From an uncultured Desulfobacter sp. (GTDB lineage: Bacteria > Desulfobacterota > Desulfobacteria > Desulfobacterales > Desulfobacteraceae): DNA of 64,000 nt. Made by a program: the position numbers and the translations under genes. The first letter of the stretch is position 1. Every line of letters begins with the position of its first letter. This document shows positions 31,761 to 44,618 of this stretch, in pieces. The notes below the pieces were generated by a model, which was not told where the DNA came from, did not search any database, and saw only the letters and a program-made list of their open reading frames with translations. The stretch covers positions 4,608,001-4,672,000 of the forward strand of contig OY762069.1 in assembly GCA_963665095.1 (NCBI GenBank). The letters are read 5' to 3'.

Positions 31761-33233
31761 TTAACGCAATGCTTTCATGGCACCCATATAGCCGCGCAGC
31801 TTTTTGCCCACAATTTCAACAGGATGGTTACGAATGGCCTCATTGACTTTAATCAGCCGGATATTATCGCAGCCGTTGTCGGAAAGATCAGGTCCTTTTC
31901 CAATAACATCAATATCAAGGCCTTCCATAAACTCTTTAAGCAGGGGTACTGCTGTATGGGCAAACAGGTAACAGCCGTATTCCGCAGTATCTGAAATCAC
32001 CACATTCATCTCATACAGTTTTTTCCTGGCAATGAGATTGGCAATGAGCGGCACCTCATGCAAAGATTCGTAATAGGCCGATTCTTCAATGATGCCGGCT
32101 GAAACCATGGTGTCGAATGCAAGCTCCACACCGGCTTTAACCATGGCAATCATGAGGATACCGTGGTCAAAATATTCCTGCTCGGCAATGTCGGCATCCT
32201 GGGAGACAGATGTCTCAAAGGCCGTATCCTGGGTTGCGGCCCGCCACTTGAGAAGATTGGCGTCATTATTGGCCCAGTCCTCCATCATGGTTTTGGAGAA
32301 AAAGCCCGTCATGATGTCGTCCATGTGTTTGTTAAACAGCGGCGTCCATATATTCTTAAGCTGTTCGCTCAATTCAAAAGCTCTGATTTTGGCGGGATTG
32401 GAAAGCCGGTCCATCATGTTGGTAATACCGCCATGTTTCAGTGCTTCGGTGACGGTTTCCCACCCGTATTGAACCAGTTTGGAAGCATAACCTGCATCCA
32501 TGCCCTTCTCAATCATCTTGTCATAACAGAGCAGGGCACCGGTCTGCAGAACGCCACACAAAATGGTCTGCTCACCCATGAGATCCGATTTTACCTCAGC
32601 CACAAAAGAGGACTGCAGCACCCCGGCTTTGTGGCCACCGGTACCTGCTGCGTAGGCTTTGGCCAGCTCCAGACCCTCGCCTCTGGGGTCGTTTTCACGG
32701 TGTACTGCGATCAGGGTAGGAACGCCAAAGCCCCTTTTGTACTCTTCCCTGACTTCAGTGCCGGGAGATTTGGGAGCCACCATGATGACTGTCAGATCGT
32801 CTCTGATCTGCATGCCCTCTTCCACGATATTGAACCCGTGGGAATAGGAGAGGCAGGCATCTTTTTTAATCAGGGGCATGATGGACTCAATGACGTTGGA
32901 GTGCTGTTTATCCGGGGTCAGGTTGATGACCAGATCAGCTGCGGGCAGCATCTCTTCATAGGTACCTACGGCAAATCCGTTTTCCGTGGCATTTTTCCAG
33001 GACTGCCGTTTTTCTGAGATGGCAGCCTCCCGAAGTGTATAGGAAACATCCAGCCCGCTGTCCCTTAAGTTCAGACCCTGATGCAGGCCCTGGGCCCCAC
33101 ACCCCACAATAACAATTTTTTTACCCTTAAGCGCCTCCACCCCGTTGAATTCCGACGGATCCATGAACCGGCACTGGGAAAGCTCCTCCAGCTGTAGCCT
33201 TAGGGGCAGAGAGTTAAAATAATTTGTGCCCAT
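31761..33233 (-). CDS. ilvC: Ketol-acid reductoisomerase, long (class II, E. coli-type) form
   Basis: 490 aa; [28 protein letters not shown], duplicated C-terminal domain ([16 protein letters not shown]). Confidence 0.97.
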
Positions 33234-33336: not shown

Positions 33337-33440
33337 CTGATTAGAATGGCCCTGTGGCAAAGGACTTCCCCCTGAAAAAAAAGGCCAGGGGCAATACTCA
33401 ACAAAAAAACCGTATCTTCAATTCCCGGATCAGACATAAT

Positions 33441-34325
33441 ATGGATATCCGTACCCTGGAACTTTTCCGCCATCTCAGCAGAACCCTCCACTTCACCCGG
33501 ACCAGCAGGGAGTGCAACCTCTCGCCATCGGCGCTTACCCGGGCTGTACAGCGCCTGGAAACAGATGTGGGAAAACAGCTTTTCCTGCGCGGGAACCGGT
33601 CTGTGGAACTGACCTATGCCGGCCGTGCGTTTAAAACATACGCAGAGGACGTGCTGGACCGCTGGGATCGGTTGCAGGAGGAGTTGTCCCAGGAGGAGTT
33701 CCTCTCAGGCCAGCTCTCCCTGTACTGCTCTGTAACAGCGGCCTACTCCATTTTACCCGGTATCATTACCCGGTATCGGGCTGTGCATCCCGGAGTGCAG
33801 ATCCTTCTTGAAACCGGAGACCCGGCCGAGGCCCTGGACAGGCTGATGAACCTGGATGCCCATGCCGTGATCGCAGCCATGCCCGAAAAACCCGGTGCCC
33901 AGATCAGCTTTTTGAACATGGCCACAAGCCCGTTGGTGTTCATTGTGGCCCGCCCGTATACAGATATTGTGGTCCGGGACAGCACAGGACAACCTGACTG
34001 GGATAAAATTCCCATGATACTGGCAGACAAGGGACTAAGCCGGGAACGCATTGATCTCTGGTTTGAAGAAAACAATGTGGCACCACGTATCCACTCACGG
34101 GTCACGGGTCACGAAGCGATTATTGCGCTGGTGAATCTGGGGTTCGGCATGGGTCTTGTTCCCAGGCTGGTTTTGGAAAAAAGCCCCCTTTACCGAAATA
34201 TGGTGGTTCTTGACAACATGCCGGAACTACCTCCTTATGAAATTGCCCTTTGCACCCGGTGCAACAACCTGTCTAATCCCCGGGTCCGGGCCTTATGGGA
34301 CATCTCTGCCCAGCTTTGCCGGTGA
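33441..34325 (+). CDS. ilvY: LysR-family regulator IlvY
   Basis: MDIRTLELF.HL..TLHF, LYCSVTAAYS, LETGD, GHEAI; divergent from ilvC. Confidence 0.93.
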   Translation: MDIRTLELFRHLSRTLHFTRTSRECNLSPSALTRAVQRLETDVGKQLFLRGNRSVELTYAGRAFKTYAEDVLDRWDRLQEELSQEEFLSGQLSLYCSVTAAYSILPGIITRYRAVHPGVQILLETGDPAEALDRLMNLDAHAVIAAMPEKPGAQISFLNMATSPLVFIVARPYTDIVVRDSTGQPDWDKIPMILADKGLSRERIDLWFEENNVAPRIHSRVTGHEAIIALVNLGFGMGLVPRLVLEKSPLYRNMVVLDNMPELPPYEIALCTRCNNLSNPRVRALWDISAQLCR

Positions 34326-34536
34326 CTTAATTTTTTAAGGCGTTTCTGGGGGAGGGCAAAATAAGATTTCCTCTGTAATATGACACAGCTTTACGGCTTT
34401 TGCTGAACCAGACCTGTCTATATACCAACGTGATGCCGGGCGAAGCCGTAAATATTGACTTTGGCTTTAAATTCACCTAAAAATTGGCAGCGTGAAAATT
34501 GCTGTTTGCAGCATCCTTGAATAACAGGAAATAATA

Positions 34537-35955
34537 TTGGTTCATATAAAACATTATCCATCACAAACATATCCCGGCCGTAAATGGTTAAAGACCCTTT
34601 TTTCCATCGCGGTACTGTTTACGTTGCTGCAGCCAGGCACTATGGCCCGGGCGGAATCGCTTACCATTGCCTGCTATCAGGACTACCCGCCTTATTCCCA
34701 TGTGGGGGACAAGGGGGAGCCCCAGGGCCTGCTGGTGGATTTCTGGCAGCTCTGGGCAAAAAACAATCAGGTATCCGTAACCTTTGTACCCGGCCCTTTG
34801 AGCCAGTGCCTTGAGCAGGTGAAAAGCGGTAAAGCGGATTTTATGATCGGACTTTTTAAATCCGAAGACCGTGCGGCATTCCTGGATTTTTCCAAGCCCT
34901 TCATGACTGTCCACACCAATCTTTATGTTCAACAGGACATGGAAATTGATACCATTGAGCAGATGCCTGCCGACGTTGTGGTGGGTATGGTAAAAGAGGA
35001 CTTTTCCGTCTCCTTTTTTCATTCCCGGTACCCCAAAGTGAAAATAAAAGAGTTTTCCGGGGCCCAGGCTGTGCTTGAAAATGCCATGGCCGGAAAAATA
35101 AAGGCTTTTGCCCTTGATTTTCCCAATGCGGTGGTGCTCATGGCTGAACACAATTCCCTGGAAGAGTTCAAAAACCTGAAAACATTGTATACTGAACAAC
35201 TGCGGGCCGGGGTAGCCAAGGGCAATACGCGGCTTTTAGAAAAAATTGACAAAGGGCTTGCCATGGTGCCGGACAAAGAGATCAAGGCCCTTTACAGCAA
35301 ATGGGGGATTGCACCCAAACCGCTTCTTATTCAGTACCGGGGATGGGTAATCGCGCTTGTTGTACTTCTGCTTGCCGGATGTGTCGGCTTTGGTCTTTAT
35401 GTATTCCGGCTTAAAACCCGCATTCAAAACATGAAACAGGATGATGGATCCTCTGACGTAAATGCTTGGGAAAAAATTGTCTCTGGCGGTGAGAATGACG
35501 CGGTTGAATTCAAAACCTCCCTTCGCTGGAATGTCAAAGAGGAAAAAACAGATAAGCGCCTTGAAGCGGTGGTGGTTAAAACCCTGTCTGCATTCATGAA
35601 TGCCCGGGGCGGTTCACTGTTCATCGGTATTAATGACAATGGCGAACCAGTGGGCATCGAAGCTGACTACCGGACTTTTCAGAAAAAGCCTAACCAGGAC
35701 GGCTTTATGCTCAAACTCTCCGATCTGATTTCCAAAAACCTGGGCGCCCAGAGCCATAAATACATTGTTGCCGATATTCGGGTAATGGATGGTAAAGATG
35801 TGTGCCGGATTTCGGTCAAACCCTCTGACAAGCCTGTTTTCATCACCGATCAGGGTAAAGAGGCTTTTTATATCCGGGCAGGGGCCTCATCCATTCCCCT
35901 TGGTATGAGTCAGGCCCACGAATATATAACCTCCCACTGGCAACGGAGTGTTTGA
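34537..35955 (+). CDS. Periplasmic solute-binding domain (SBP family 3) + TM helix + cytoplasmic Schlafen/AlbA_2 domain
   Basis: Signal peptide; DYPPYS..G..VD, R...LDFSKP, GVAKGN..LL..IDKGL..KW; TM WVIALVVLLLAGCVGFGLYVF; GENDAVEFK, SAFMNARGGSLFIGINDNG, FYIRAG. Confidence 0.85.
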   Translation: MVHIKHYPSQTYPGRKWLKTLFSIAVLFTLLQPGTMARAESLTIACYQDYPPYSHVGDKGEPQGLLVDFWQLWAKNNQVSVTFVPGPLSQCLEQVKSGKADFMIGLFKSEDRAAFLDFSKPFMTVHTNLYVQQDMEIDTIEQMPADVVVGMVKEDFSVSFFHSRYPKVKIKEFSGAQAVLENAMAGKIKAFALDFPNAVVLMAEHNSLEEFKNLKTLYTEQLRAGVAKGNTRLLEKIDKGLAMVPDKEIKALYSKWGIAPKPLLIQYRGWVIALVVLLLAGCVGFGLYVFRLKTRIQNMKQDDGSSDVNAWEKIVSGGENDAVEFKTSLRWNVKEEKTDKRLEAVVVKTLSAFMNARGGSLFIGINDNGEPVGIEADYRTFQKKPNQDGFMLKLSDLISKNLGAQSHKYIVADIRVMDGKDVCRISVKPSDKPVFITDQGKEAFYIRAGASSIPLGMSQAHEYITSHWQRSV

Positions 35956-36029
35956 ACGGCTCGAAGAGGGGCATGCGCCCCTCTTCGAGCCGTTCAAACA
36001 CCAAACACGGGGTTTTCGTTCAGGCACTA
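35947..36029. repeat. MITE-like palindromic element with a perfect 25-bp stem
   Basis: 35948-35972 is the exact reverse complement of 35977-36001 (4-nt loop); outer ends AGTGTTTGAACG / CGTTCAGGCACT match at 10/12. Confidence 0.6.
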
Positions 36030-36067
36030 GAAGCCATCTCAAAATAAATATTTTGAGATGGCTTCTA
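36028..36067. mobile_element. Collapsed MITE (19-bp inverted repeats only)
   Basis: TAGAAGCCATCTCAAAATA-AA-TATTTTGAGATGGCTTCTA; the same arm recurs at 58742-58760. Confidence 0.6.
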
Positions 36068-36239: not shown

Positions 36240-39017
36240 ATGCCAACCCTTCTGATCAACAATCAAAAAGTCGAGTTTCAGCCCAGGCAGACCATTTTAG
36301 ACCTGTGCAGTTCTCTATCAATTAATATTCCTACTCTTTGTTATCTCAAAGGAACTACCCCGGAAGGCGCCTGTGGTGTCTGCCTGGTAAAGGAAGCTGC
36401 CCGTGGCATGATACGGGCTTGCGATACTGAAGCTGCCCCGGGAATGGAGATACGCACTGACGGCCATGAAGTCCGGGCTGCCCGGAGGAAAGCCATTGCA
36501 AAGCTCGTCGCCGGGGGCAACCACAATTGCGGTGTGGCCGGGACCATGAAAGGCAGCTTTACCGATTTTCAGATGGATTCGGGCCAGGTGACCTCCGGTT
36601 TTGATCTGTGTCCGGCATGGGGAGACTGCCGGCTCCAGGATTTGGTTTATGAATATCAGGCCCATGCCGAAGCCTTCACAATGGAATGGAAAAACGAGGT
36701 GCCGGATGTGGCCAACCCCATGATTGTCAGGGATTACTCCAGGTGCATCGGCTGCGGCCGGTGCGTAAAAGCATGCAATGAGGTGCAGGCAAATATGGCT
36801 ATTAAAATGGATGATACAGGTAAACGGGATAAGGTGACCACCACCACGGGCTCAGACTCTTTGATGGATACCAGTTGCGTCTTCTGCGGAGAGTGTGTCC
36901 AGGCCTGTCCGGTGGGGGCTCTGGTTGAAAAAAAGGCTAAAGAAAACTGGCGGCCCTGGGATGTTGAAAAAATTCGAACGACCTGCCCCTATTGCGGTGT
37001 GGGCTGCCAGCAGCTTCTTCATGTCCAGGACGGAAAAATTGTCAAGGTAACCGGCGTGGAAGATGGTGCCCCCAACAAGGGTCGACTTTGTGTCAAAGGC
37101 CGGTTCGGGTATGACTTTATCTATTCGGATGAACGCATTAAAATGCCGGTGATCCGCCAGGAAAACGGAGAATTCAAGGAGGTCTCCTGGGATGAGGCCC
37201 TGGACTATACGGCGGACCGGCTGAAAGCCATTATCGCCGAATCCGGTCCCGATGCTGTGGCAGGCGTCTCCTGCGCCCGCTCAATCAACGAAGACTCCTA
37301 CCAGATGCAGAAACTTTTCAGGGCGGTGTTCAAGACAAACAACATCGACCATTGTGCCCGTACCTGACATGCGCCAACTGTCGCAGGTCTTGCGGCTTCA
37401 TTTGGTTCCGGCGCCATGACAAACTCCTTTGGGGAGTTTTCAAAAGCAAAAATGTTCTTCGTGATCGGGTCAAACATGACCGAGGCCCATCCAGTGGCTG
37501 CCACATTCTTGAAAAATGCAGTGCAGAACGGGGCCAAGCTCATTGTGGCGGATCCCAGGAAACACCGTCTGGCTGATTTTGCGGACATCCACCTGCCCTT
37601 GAAAGTGGGTTCGGATATCGCACTTCTCAACAGCCTGATGCATGTGCTGATCAAAGAAGATCTTTATGATAAAAACTTTGTAAACAACCATACAGAAGAT
37701 TTCGATAAGCTGAAAGCCACTGTGGACGCCTATCCGCCCGAGCGGGGGGAAGAGATTTCCGGAATTCCGGCCCATCAGATTGTTGAAACAGCAAGAATGC
37801 TGGCCTCTGTCAAGCCTTTGATGCTCTGTTATACCCTAGGCATCACCGAGCATACCTGCGGCCGTAACAATGTGGTCTCCACGGCCAATCTCCAGATGCT
37901 TTTAGGCAACCTTGGCGTGGAGTGCGGCGGCGTCAACCCCCTGCGTGGCCAGAACAATGTCCAGGGGGCATGCGACATGGGGGCACTGCCCAATGTCTAC
38001 CCCGGATACCAGGCTGTCACAGCGCCTGCGTCCAAAGAGAAGTTTGAAAAATTCTGGGGCGTGGAAGGGATGTCAGACAAACTCGGCCTGATGATCCCCC
38101 AGATGATGGACGGCCTGGTGGACAAAACAGTCCGGGCATTCTGGATATTTGGCGAGAACCTGGCCAATACCGAGCCGGACATCCGCAAGGTGGAACATGA
38201 ACTCGCCTCTGCGGAGTTCCTCATCTGTCAGGATATTTTCTTCAATGAGACCACGAAGTTTGCCGATGTGGTGTTCCCGGCCCAGGCCTGGAGTGAAAAT
38301 GACGGGACCTTTACCAATAGTGAACGAAGGGTCAACCGGGTCAGAGGCGTCAGCAAGGCGCCGGGTCAGGCCCAGCCCAACTGGTGGATCTTCCGTGAAA
38401 TCGCCAAACGGTTCGGCCAGGAGTGGGCATCCAACTCCGCACAGGAGATCTGGGATAATGAGTTGTCCGAACTGGGGCCTGCCTTTGGCGGCATAAAATA
38501 CCACCGCATTGAAAACGACGGACTCCAGTGGCCCTGCCCCACCCTTGAACATCCGGGTACGGGGTTTCTGCACAATCAGGGGGCGTTCACCCGTGGCAAG
38601 GGCGCGTTCCTGCCGGTGGAATGGACACCACCTGCCGAAGTACCGGACAAGGAGTATCCCTTTGTCTTAAGTACAGGCAGACGGCTGTATCATTACCATA
38701 CCAGGACCCAGACCGGGCGCTGCGCCGGACTCAATGATCTTTTGGGTGAGGAAACAGCCGATATTTCACTGAAAGAGGCCCAGCGCCTGGGTATTGAGCA
38801 TGGAGAGTACATCCATGTCAGTTCCCGGCGCGGGCAGGTCAGAGTCAGAGCCAATGTCACCGAAGAGATGCCGGACGGCATGGTGTGGATGGCTTTCCAC
38901 TTCAGGGAGGGCAATGCCAACTGGCTGGCCAATCCGGCCTTTGACCCCATCACCCTTACGGCTGAGTACAAGGCCTGTGCGGTTAACATTGCAAAAATAG
39001 AAAAACAGAAGGCGTAA
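36240..39017 (+). CDS. fdhF: Selenocysteine formate dehydrogenase alpha subunit, copy 1 (925 aa, Sec at TGA 37365-37367)
   Basis: The two track ORFs are in frame across IDHCART-U-HAPTVAGL; N-terminal 2Fe-2S and 2x[4Fe-4S], CPYCGVGC, RGQNNVQG; no Tat signal. Confidence 0.93.
37365..37396 (+). promoter_or_regulatory. UGA + bacterial SECIS hairpin (copy 1)
   Basis: GTCGCA-GGTCT-TGCGGC stem-loop beginning 12 nt after the TGA. Confidence 0.8.
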
Positions 39018-41855: not shown

Positions 41856-44618
41856 ATGGAGAAGAACATTTTAACGCTTAATGAAAACCGATTGGAATTC
41901 ATTCCGGGCGAAACCATTCTGGATGTTGCCAATAGGAATAAAATAGATATTCCCACCCTGTGCCATCTTGCAAACACCACACCCACCAAAACCTGCGGTA
42001 TCTGTGTGGTTGAAATAGAAGGCCAGAAGGATCTGGTCGAGTCCTGCGCCACCCAGGCCCGGGACGGTATGGTCATTTTTTCAGAATCCTTAAAGGTTGT
42101 GGCCAGAAGAAAACAGATACTTTCAGACATGCTCGCAAAGGGCAATCACAACTGTGCCATCCGTGTCATGGAAGCGGATGAATGGACCGATTTCCAGATG
42201 GATGTCCATGCGGACGAGGGCAAGCAGGCCCTTTGCCCGGTATGGGGGGATTGTGAACTCCAGAATCTGGCCTACCGGTATCAGGTCCGGGTCAGCCATA
42301 TGCCCCAGCAGGCCTGTGTTCATGAGACAGAACGGGTCAATCCCTTTATTATCAGGGATTTTTCAAGATGTATCCTGTGCGGCCGGTGTGTCAAAGCCTG
42401 CCGGGAAATTCAGGTTAACAACGCCATCGAATTTGGCGGTCAAGGAGATGAAATGAAAGTCGTTGCCGGAAATGATGCGCATTTAAAAGACTCAGACTGC
42501 GTCTTTTGCGGAGAATGCATCCAGGCCTGCCCGGTTGGGGCGCTGGTTCCGGAACGTGAGTTCCGTGACGACCGGTTCAAACCCACCAACGTTACCCGCA
42601 CCACCTGCGCGTTCTGCGGGGTGGGCTGCCAGATGGATGTCTATACCCAGGACAATAAAATCGTTAAGATTGACGGTGCAGACCCGGATTTGGCGCCCAA
42701 CAACGCCCGTCTCTGCGTCAAGGGCCGTTTCGGATATGAATTTGTCGGTGCCCCGGATCGTTTAACCACACCGTTGATCAAGAAAAACGGCAAACAGGTC
42801 AAGGCGTCATGGGACGAAGCCCTGGACCTTGTGGCCTCAAAGTTTGCCGAAATCCGTGACAAGAGCGGATCAGACACCATGGGGGTCCTCACCTCAGCCC
42901 GTATGACCAACGAGGACAACTATGCGGCCATGAAATTCACCCGGGCCGTGTTAAAAACAAACAATATAGATCATTGTGCCCGACTGTGACATAGCTCCAC
43001 CGTAGCCGGTCTGGCTGCAGCATTTGGAAGCGGCGCAATGACAAACACCATCGCCGATATTGAAGAAGCAGACGTGATCCTGGTCACAGGATCCAATACA
43101 ACTGAAAACCATCCGGTCCTGTCCACCTTTATTAAACGGGCCGTACTCAAAGGCAAAAAGCTTTATGTGATTGACCCCCGTCGGGTCCGGCTTTCCGACC
43201 ACGCTGAAAAGTGGCTGCGCCCCAATCCGGGTACAGACATTGCCTGGATCAACGGCATGATGAACGTCATCCTGTCTGAAAACCTTCAGGCTCAGTCCTA
43301 TATCGACCAGCGGTGTGAAAACTTTGACGAGCTGAAAGCCATTGTTGAAAAATACACGCCTGAATATGTGGAAGGCTTGACCGGAATTGCCGCAGAAGAC
43401 CTGAAAACTGTAGCAAGAGATTTTGCCAAAGCCGGTGCCGCCTCCATCTGCTACTGTATGGGCATCACCCAGCACACCTGCGGTACGGACAACGTCAAGA
43501 GCCTGGCCAACCTCTCCATGCTCTGCGGTCATTTAGGCAAACCCGGCGGCGGTGTGAATCCGTTGCGCGGACAGAACAACGTCCAGGGCGCCTGTGACAT
43601 GGGGGGGCTTCCCAATGTCTTCACCGCCTATCAGCCTGTGGCCAATGAACAGGCCCGGGCGATCTATGAAGAGGCATGGAATGTCACCGGTCTTTCAGGC
43701 ACCGTAGGGTTTACAGCCACGGAGATGTTCAACAAAGCCCACGACGGCGAGCTGAAATCCCTGTTCATCATCGGGGAAAATCCCATGGTGTCGGACCCGG
43801 ATCTCAACCATGCCCAGAAAGCACTGGAACACCTTGAGTTTTTGGTGGTTCAGGATATTTTTGAGACTGAAACATCCGCTCTGGCCGATGTGGTATTGCC
43901 TGCCTTCTGTTTTGCAGAAAAGGATGGCACCTTTACCAACACAGAAAGACGTGTTCAGCGGGTCAGAAAAGCGGTAGATGCACCTGACGGCGCAAAACAG
44001 GACTGGGAGATCATCTGTGAGATCGCCACCCGCATGGGATACCCCATGTCCTGGGAGAACAGCGAAGCGGTCTTTACAGAGATTACGGCTTTGACGCCGT
44101 CCTACCGGGGCATTACCTGGGACCGCATTGATAAGGTTGGGCTTTTCTGGCCCTGCCCGGATGCCGAACATCCTGGCACCCCAATTCTGCACACCAAGGT
44201 GTTCACCAGGGGCAAAGGCATGTTCCACGCCATTGACCACAGGCCGCCTGCAGAAGAGCCGGATGAAAAGTATCCCTTTATCCTCACCACCGGCCGGGTG
44301 CTTTATCACTACCACACAGGTACCATGACCATGCGCACCGCAGGTCTGAACACCCTGTCTCCGGAGTGCTTTGTGGAGATTTCCGGAAGCGATGCCAAAA
44401 AGATCGGCGTGGAAAATGGAAAGATGGTCAATGTCTTCTCCCGCAGGGGTAAAATCAAAGCCCGGCTCCAGGTATCGGAAAAAGCTGTGGACGGCACCAT
44501 TTTCATCCCGTTCCACTTTGCCGGCGCCGCTGCCAACAGGCTGACCAATGCAGAACTTGATCCCACAGCCAAAATCCCGGAATTTAAGGTCTGTGCCATC
44601 AACATAGAAGCAGCATAA
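41856..44618 (+). CDS. fdhF: Selenocysteine formate dehydrogenase alpha subunit, copy 2 (920 aa, Sec at TGA 42987-42989)
   Basis: In frame across IDHCARL-U-HSSTVAGL; same domain layout as copy 1. Confidence 0.93.
42987..43018 (+). promoter_or_regulatory. UGA + bacterial SECIS hairpin (copy 2)
   Basis: GTAGCC-GGTCT-GGCTGC, 12 nt after the TGA; same loop as copy 1 with a different stem. Confidence 0.8.

Follow-up and report, generated by a model that had tools for sequence, protein, structure and literature searches.

A conserved bacterial protein family in which a periplasmic flytrap sensor is joined through one membrane helix to a Schlafen domain: a candidate receptor RNase

The gene at positions 34537..35955 (forward strand) of the 64,000-nucleotide stretch of DNA analysed here (the window) is an ORF of 472 aa with a TTG start, encoding a receptor-like protein in which a periplasmic SBP (Venus flytrap) sensor is joined through a single transmembrane (TM) helix to a cytoplasmic Schlafen domain. 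The receptor is real and conserved, its layout makes it a member of both the Schlafen family and the flytrap receptors, and it does not behave as a defence-island gene. It is tentatively proposed, at slightly less than even probability, to be a one-component inner-membrane receptor serving ordinary physiology, with a metal-dependent RNase, probably directed at tRNA, under the control of a periplasmic ligand. The conserved one-component, receptor-like architecture put forward in an earlier sequence-only reading of this DNA is supported, together with an intact nuclease motif and a promoter of the gene's own.

The order of signal peptide, SBP_bac_3 domain, single TM helix and Schlafen/AlbA_2 domain described in that reading was borne out by Pfam, hydropathy and structure modelling, with the signal peptide assigned by eye; these, with the cytoplasmic output, are the elements of an SBP_bac_3-type receptor. 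A ribosome-binding site, AGGA, was read at 34526..34529 (+), 7 nt 5' of the TTG start. It is followed by a probable cleavable signal peptide (aa 1-39, 34537..34653, +) with a basic start, a hydrophobic stretch and an AxA end (A-R-A, then E40), features that were read by eye and are retained in homologues, and hydropathy analysis gave a weaker hydrophobic stretch at aa 17-39. The database product of the gene, P0002, begins at M36 and therefore lacks the signal peptide. The sensor-type SBP_bac_3 domain (34660..35307, +) was found by Pfam at aa 42-257 (E 6.7e-26) and has structural matches, whereas SLFN_AlbA_2 occupies aa 319-454 (E 6.6e-19), so that the HMM scan proposed earlier returned both domains above their curated cut-offs. 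Between them lie the TM helix (aa about 270-291, 35344..35409, +), identified by a hydropathy peak and the model and followed by the basic sequence RLKTR, and a modelled juxtamembrane helix with a short linker (aa 292-308, 35410..35460, +). The only strongly hydrophobic segment is the 19-mer from aa 271 (aa 271-289, KD 2.68), and the spacing from TM helix to catalytic motif is 19-31 residues across SBP-type relatives. The full-length AlphaFold2 model (mean pLDDT 80) shows the flytrap domain, a continuous helix from 268 to 301 and a compact C-terminal domain. The single-lobe Schlafen/AlbA_2 domain spans 35461..35940 (+) by Pfam, model, Z scores and column counts; the extent of 35485-35952 given earlier was right as to the domain and slightly off as to its start, the Schlafen fold beginning near 35461. 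The GC content of the gene (48.5%) is close to that of the genome (48.7%). Judged from the names of homologues, the host belongs to Desulfobacteraceae and probably to Desulfobacter.

The sequence-only reading had left room for the C-terminal domain not to match AlbA_2 at all, and the match to PF04326 reached 69 bits against a curated cut-off of 25.3. Modelled by itself (pLDDT 92), the domain resembled 3LMM (DIP2311; Z 13.7, rmsd 3.2, 141 aligned), the human SAMD9 AlbA tRNase domain 7KSP (Z 13.2, rmsd 3.3, 152 aligned), the rabbit SAMD9 tRNase domain (Z 12.8) and mammalian Schlafens (Z 7-10, with 8-10 for SLFN5/11/12/13/14), while unrelated folds reached Z 4.8 or less, which identifies a Schlafen C-lobe fold. 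The E-x4-EFK, SAFxN-xxGG and GIxD motifs claimed for it occur as E319-NDAV-E324-F-K326, SAFMNARGG and GIND367, the catalytic-motif codons being E319 at 35491, E324 at 35506, K326 at 35512 and D367 at 35635 (+). Residues E319, E324, K326, D367, K348, D377, D388 and R447 are invariant in all 41 proteins of a wide alignment, in which the sensor diverges while the Schlafen active-site residues stay the same, and the catalytic E/E/K and D are present in 36/36 SBP-type rows; R330, K340, K348 and R447 are the conserved basic residues of the domain. The predicted active site is thus intact. Its equation with an E/E/D ribonuclease site of mammalian Schlafens needs one correction: human SLFN11 depends on E209, E214 and K216, and the D252A substitution did not lower its activity (PMC9482658), although the Asp is required in Avs9 (PMC12680541). 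The E-x4-E-x-K motif is essential in SLFN11 (PMC9482658), RorSlfn5 (PMC13056530) and Cash (PMC13462974). In RzAgo, two single-lobe Schlafen domains together rebuild an RNA cleft: the active site comes from one of them, and its partner contributes a basic patch located 14-15 residues past the catalytic Asp (bioRxiv 10.64898/2026.05.29.728809). K337 and K340 of the receptor, each kept in 38/39 proteins of a Desulfobacteraceae-centred set, have a similar spacing and are a lead, from spacing only, towards a comparable patch; a homodimer prediction of aa 258-470 scored 0.01.

The possibility that the fusion is a strain-specific chimera, raised with the original description, was rejected: both Pfam domains occur together in 40 other proteins retrieved by a protein search (39 counted as full length or nearly so; 49-78% identity), and an intact gene is carried by 18 of 161 Desulfobacteraceae genomes, in five genera. 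An order-wide sample of 301 genomes held the gene in two, adding one further full-length carrier (G095), and a 401-genome phylum sample gave none besides the window's own. The ESM Atlas contains a 61-member SBP_bac_3 + SLFN_AlbA_2 cluster with Bacteroidota as its commonest phylum. Among 19 orthologues, the median dN/dS over 39 unsaturated pairs of 171 was 0.13 in the Schlafen domain, 0.18 in the SBP domain and 0.27 in the TM helix and linker; on these ratios, both domains are under purifying selection. A protein tree built by a quick method largely follows GyrB, with G447 and G407/G408 misplaced; these also lie off the usual chromosomal site described below, which suggests occasional transfer. 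One further copy, in G324 (L011:7900-8650), is decayed, with most of the SBP domain missing and the frame broken, the TM end and Schlafen domain still being open; in that genome an unrelated SBP gene lies between the decayed copy and ilvY.

In the window, the upstream neighbour is the LysR regulator gene ilvY (33354..34325, +; NCBIfam NF008722, E 8e-105), from which the ketol-acid reductoisomerase gene ilvC (31761..33233, −; NCBIfam NF003557) diverges. The receptor gene stands at ilvC/ilvY in 12 of 19 carriers, in two genera, ten directly behind ilvY and two with one gene between. An obligate link was rejected, as 30 ilvY loci of non-carriers have other downstream genes. Since ilvY is present in 103/161 genomes, mostly without the receptor gene, and the receptor keeps its promoter at unrelated sites, ilvY may be a mere address. 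That promoter, predicted to be of sigma-70 type, is the TTGACT-N17-TAAAAA noted in the sequence-only reading (34455..34483, +). The pattern TTGAC[TA]-N16/17-TA lies upstream of 16/19 orthologues, which are kin and not independent, compared with 2% of 340-nt windows drawn at random. It is also kept in orthologues at other chromosomal sites, and the intergenic DNA around it is not conserved. Genome-wide, 105/150 TTGACT-N17-TA sites fall between genes, where the background is 15%, whereas a consensus scan by itself was at chance level (4 found, 3.7 expected), so the prediction draws on conservation and genome-wide enrichment. An AATTCA-N4-TGAATT palindrome over the −10 element of some orthologues was dropped as an operator, being degenerate at the 34537 gene; of its 16 matches in the genome, 6 lie between genes, and no theme shared by them was seen. 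Downstream, a perfect hairpin with 25-bp arms covers the stop codon (35948..36001, +) and possibly serves as a terminator; copies related to it occur at other places in the genome, and none lies 3' of orthologues. This hairpin and a second perfect one with 19-bp arms (36028-36067) belong to two dispersed palindromic repeat families of the genome. Further on, two formate dehydrogenase alpha genes (36240-39017 and 41856-44618) are each interrupted by an in-frame TGA (37365-37367 and 42987-42989, after DHCART/DHCARL), as expected for selenocysteine. At two Bacteroidota-like loci, a DUF4252 lipoprotein-like gene lies 3' of the receptor (L109:9444-9944 and L110:1856-2419).

Association with defence genes was assessed from 196 neighbour ORFs of 18 loci, represented by 117 proteins, from which 12 edge-cut or doubtful ones were removed and to which 7 others were added, giving 112. 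PADLOC matched 11 of these, all via common domains (NUDIX, receiver, methyltransferase, sigma-54 ATPase, radical SAM, phospholipase D, FAD and kinase), and only a kinase at L047, 3 kb away, covers most of a profile (PD-T4-6). At six metagenome SBP-Schlafen loci, 5/45 neighbours matched, all partially, and there is a weak AbiP match at the edge of L115. As a positive control, 11/12 hand-picked neighbours of four soluble-Schlafen loci matched, with full-length matches to type I RM, Avs4, Septu and PD-T7-3. None of 72,556 plasmid or 50,697 phage records covers 80% of the receptor protein, and a viral-contig scan gave three Schlafen-only matches and no full-length copy. Across these 112 + 45 neighbours and the plasmid, phage and viral-contig scans, no association with defence islands or mobile elements was found; the receptor neighbourhoods are housekeeping, unlike those of the soluble DUF262-Schlafen relatives, which lie among defence genes.

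These data bear chiefly on the alternative that survives best, a stand-alone antiviral or danger sensor, in which tRNA cleavage that limits phage yield would be triggered by envelope damage, part of a phage or a metabolite set free when neighbouring cells lyse. The bacterial Schlafens characterised in the literature surveyed are all defence or cell-killing effectors triggered inside the cell (PMC13056530, PMC12680541, PMC13462974), the receptor's own Schlafen domain nests among defence fusions in trees, and, according to the catalogue of prokaryotic Schlafens, there are defence hot spots that lack annotation (PMC13056530). The distribution is patchy, transfer within the family appears to have occurred at least twice and one copy is broken, a pattern typical of defence genes also. 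Against this stand the contrast between the receptor neighbourhoods and the control loci, the chromosomal address shared by most carriers, the lack of full-length copies on the plasmids, phages and viral contigs scanned, and the purifying selection on the sensor. Membrane-bound Schlafens, moreover, score low for defence in the catalogue of 5,930 proteins, at 0.36 for pSlfn12 ('Cache.Cache.pSlfn', 25 members; Supplementary Table 2) and 0.16 for pSlfn10 (the group labelled PsaK-like), compared with 0.71-0.76 for pSlfn1, 2 and 7 (PMC13056530). The lean of the sequence-only reading towards an anti-phage function has so far found no support in the PADLOC data, and the antiviral explanation is considered unlikely, at roughly one chance in four.

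The relatives of the Schlafen domain were surveyed with a profile of 15 rows, 10 of them SBP-type, which biases the ranking towards that type. At a threshold of E 1e-30 it retrieved 2,460 representatives, of which the best 150 were typed by domain layout with manually assigned labels, leaving 149 after one repeat protein was dropped. SBP-TM proteins account for 29 of these best 149 (22 have a Pfam SBP match, 7 match our own SBP profile only, and one carries the name of the Bacteroidota genus Draconibacterium). Pfam matched a Cache-type domain in 10 others, whose two-TM layout recurs in a further 11, and the remainder comprise 11 TM fragments, 10 two-TM, 1 multi-TM, 5 receiver and 5 bPH proteins, 21 fusions of defence-like type and 46 further soluble proteins. 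DUF262-type proteins match the receptor's Schlafen domain at 36-49% identity. When 157 domains were placed in a FastTree phylogeny, one branch (98) took in 32 of the 36 SBP-type rows; it lies among defence-type fusions such as BrxL, DUF4420 and DUF262, the closest relatives, and apart from the Cache branch. IQ-TREE on 42 rows agreed (SBP 94, Cache 98). Separate recruitment of the Schlafen domain behind SBP and Cache sensors is thereby suggested, although a topology uniting the two types was not rejected (AU p 0.156). The genome of the window holds four further Schlafen genes (G000:C1:5661459, 3451203, 4350510 and 2483752), all with the domain N-terminal, two of them lying, by eye, among restriction- or BREX-like genes. 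Four other Desulfobacteraceae genomes carry dCache-like TM-Schlafen receptors (L051-L054), none with the SBP version. Two-TM-Schlafen proteins of 270-310 aa occur in several Desulfobacterota genomes (L091-L097), those of L092-L095 adjoining a gene identified by eye as a molybdopterin-type oxidoreductase. The receiver-Schlafens (P0098, P0175, P0185, P0188 and P0203) keep the motif in 5/5 cases and are scattered over the tree, so that phosphorelay control may have arisen repeatedly; CheY-Schlafen has been catalogued as pSlfn18 with a defence score of 0.5 (PMC13056530).

The use of the subfamily behind receiver domains, in the manner of a regulatory output, would also fit a narrower function, in which the domain processes or binds one mRNA, sRNA or rRNA site and so regulates genes instead of stopping translation, possibly touching branched-chain amino-acid metabolism. 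The frequent position beside ilvC/ilvY agrees with such a role, as does the standard promoter, which would be costly for a broad tRNase. However, characterised members that keep E-x4-E/D-x-K cut tRNA (PMC13056530, PMC9482658, PMC13462974, bioRxiv 10.64898/2026.05.29.728809), Pfam shows no DNA-binding domain in the receptor, and the ilv association is weakened by the many ilvY loci without the gene and by the promoter kept off-site; a narrow output is accordingly held to be improbable.

The best structural matches of the sensor are the PBP of RmcA (7EJG) and a histidine-kinase sensor (3H7M). RmcA, an arginine-sensing receptor, has a signal sequence, a VFT domain at 21-265, a TM helix at 267-286 and a linker at 287-308, boundaries nearly equal to those of the receptor (PMC10423028). 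As sequence identity to RmcA is only about 23%, its ligand cannot be transferred. Close sensor matches in Desulfobacteraceae genomes are multi-domain proteins of 1,200-1,900 aa, the closest plasmid-record matches include sensor diguanylate cyclases, and BvgS domains are among the best sequence matches. An ABC-transporter binding protein was rejected, since all NCBIfam binding-protein scores were far below cut-off (for example, 64 vs 256); the flanking genes are ilvY and formate dehydrogenase, with no permease or ATPase neighbour. In two other genomes (G104 and G718), a closely related SBP-TM input is followed by an output of another kind, rich in Cys. These proteins (L098:1462-2577 and L090:175-1428) consist of the SBP-TM sensor, a coiled coil and a short CxxC...HxxCxxC domain without a Pfam match, and represent another unstudied receptor output.

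In the Desulfobacteraceae-centred set, Y47, Y50, F107, S109, R112 and N197 are invariant in 39/39 proteins and D155 and D194 in 38/39. R112 is kept in only 24/41 of the wide family, which indicates no single ligand class; ligands probably differ between lineages. We take the canonical alpha-amino-acid pocket to comprise, by role, Thr/Ser, Arg and Asp. In alignments to 4ZV1 and 5T0W, the Arg (R112) and Asp (D194) are kept, the Thr, presumably the binder of the alpha-amino group, is replaced by F107, and an acidic residue, presumably the reader of basic side chains, is replaced by Tyr. The polar-amino-acid ligand implied by the family assignment of the sequence-only reading is thus not supported so far, with Phe standing where Thr was expected, and the predicted pocket points weakly to a hydrophobic carboxylate; RmcA likewise has no pocket Thr yet binds arginine (PMC10423028). 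That the flytrap binds no diffusible ligand, and controls the nuclease as a scaffold or by sensing a partner protein or the state of the envelope, would accord with this non-canonical pocket, with pocket residues that vary across the wide family and with the similarity to BvgS domains, which signal without an activating ligand, but seems quite improbable given cleft positions as invariant as expected of a binding site.

The favoured reading, a ligand-gated receptor RNase of ordinary physiology, may be envisaged as follows. After signal cleavage, the flytrap domain would face the periplasm and close on a small ligand, probably bearing a carboxylate and hydrophobic, such as a non-polar amino acid or a related acid. 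Closure would be transmitted through the TM and juxtamembrane helix and would change the pairing of the single-lobe Schlafen domains of neighbouring receptors, a step proposed because the RNA cleft of other bacterial Schlafens forms only when domains pair. The E-E-K/metal site might then cut RNA, with tRNA the likeliest substrate, and thereby slow translation and growth; the shifted pairing would leave RNA cut or spared, tuning translation to outside conditions. We lean slightly towards a nutrient ligand that holds the RNase off, which would fire on scarcity, over a ligand that switches it on, as the sequence-only reading had proposed. Counted for this reading are the invariant catalytic residues beside a diverging sensor, with purifying selection; the RmcA-like geometry and the reuse of the SBP-TM input with a Cys-rich output; the occurrence of the same Schlafen subfamily behind the standard signalling inputs dCache-TM, two-TM and receiver; the housekeeping neighbours, lack of full-length plasmid or phage matches and GyrB-like tree; and the pairing seen in RzAgo (bioRxiv 10.64898/2026.05.29.728809) together with ligand gating in Cash (PMC13462974). 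Counted against it are the defence or killing roles of characterised bacterial Schlafens and the defence fusions nearest in the tree, the patchy presence, transfers and decayed copy with the PD-T4-6 and AbiP matches, and the limited retention of R112. More broadly, and with somewhat less confidence, ligand-gated receptor RNases could be a bacterial class in which a defence-derived Schlafen has been reused, perhaps twice independently (SBP and Cache), as a signalling output beside kinases and GGDEF domains, with an extracellular nutrient or cue directly controlling tRNA integrity and growth and no role in immunity.

The SBP-Schlafen layout was not found in the literature searched, though further supplements or subscription journals could list it. 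In PMC13056530, the main text uses 'cache' and 'membrane' 0 times and Cache-Schlafen is listed only in the supplement; the accessible part of the catalogue has no SBP, PBP or periplasmic label (Table 2, including 16/22 Marinilabiliales rows), and none of its 41 Desulfobacterales rows outside the kinase-fused groups is labelled or sized as the receptor. The six supplements of the Cash paper (PMC13462974) gave no SBP-Schlafen match, and the available portion of PMC8050422 has nothing on Schlafen fusions; a census of 103,533 Schlafen architectures is included in the RzAgo preprint (bioRxiv 10.64898/2026.05.29.728809). The earlier statement that no characterised protein has this architecture therefore stands as far as the literature searched goes, with the amendment that a sister Cache-Schlafen had already been catalogued (pSlfn12), unstudied. 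The same catalogue places 30% of Schlafens outside defence islands and leaves non-immune roles open (PMC13056530). The receptor family makes that question directly testable, because its soluble flytrap sensor can be screened for ligands and its output can be mutated at a known catalytic motif. The receptor's relatives sit among everyday, not antiviral, genes, which suggests that in some bacteria RNA cleavage is coupled directly to a chemical cue from outside the cell. If true, RNase would join the short list of bacterial transmembrane signalling outputs; if the function is defence instead, a Schlafen would be sensing danger from outside the cytoplasm.

Among known systems, pSlfn12 is the nearest, sharing an extracytoplasmic-type sensor, a C-terminal Schlafen of the same subfamily, occurrence in Desulfobacterales and a weak defence association (PMC13056530). 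It differs in having a dCache domain between two TM helices, whereas the receptor has a signal-cleaved SBP_bac_3 domain, by Pfam and fold, and one TM helix, and the two types form separate clades in trees in which a single origin is not rejected. EcoSlfn7 (DUF262-Schlafen, pSlfn7) and RorSlfn5 (Schlafen-Ig) are likewise sensor-fused single-lobe Schlafens with Ex4(E/D)xK, the likeness to EcoSlfn7 being drawn through DUF262-type proteins and not from its own sequence; they are, however, cytoplasmic, lie in defence islands and have been shown to defend, RorSlfn5 being triggered by a phage protein (PMC13056530), whereas the receptor is membrane-bound, with periplasmic input and a housekeeping context. 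In Cash (Schlafen-Csx15; PMC13462974) and SLFN-pAgo (bioRxiv 10.64898/2026.05.29.728809), a ligand- or target-gated rearrangement of single-lobe Schlafens switches on tRNA cleavage, a likeness proposed for the receptor, but the signals are intracellular and immune (cA4 and guide-target DNA) and no membrane is crossed. With prokaryotic Schlafen anti-phage systems in general, the receptor shares the fusion of a nuclease domain to a sensor domain. Eukaryotic IRE1 has a luminal sensor, a single TM helix and a cytosolic RNase under oligomer-state control, although it also has a kinase and senses unfolded proteins; its likeness to the receptor is one of logic only, the folds being unrelated. With flytrap receptors of the RmcA/BvgS type the receptor has in common the signal peptide, SBP_bac_3 domain, one TM helix and short linker, at lengths nearly those of RmcA, but where their outputs are c-di-GMP enzymes or kinases, its only output is a predicted nuclease domain.
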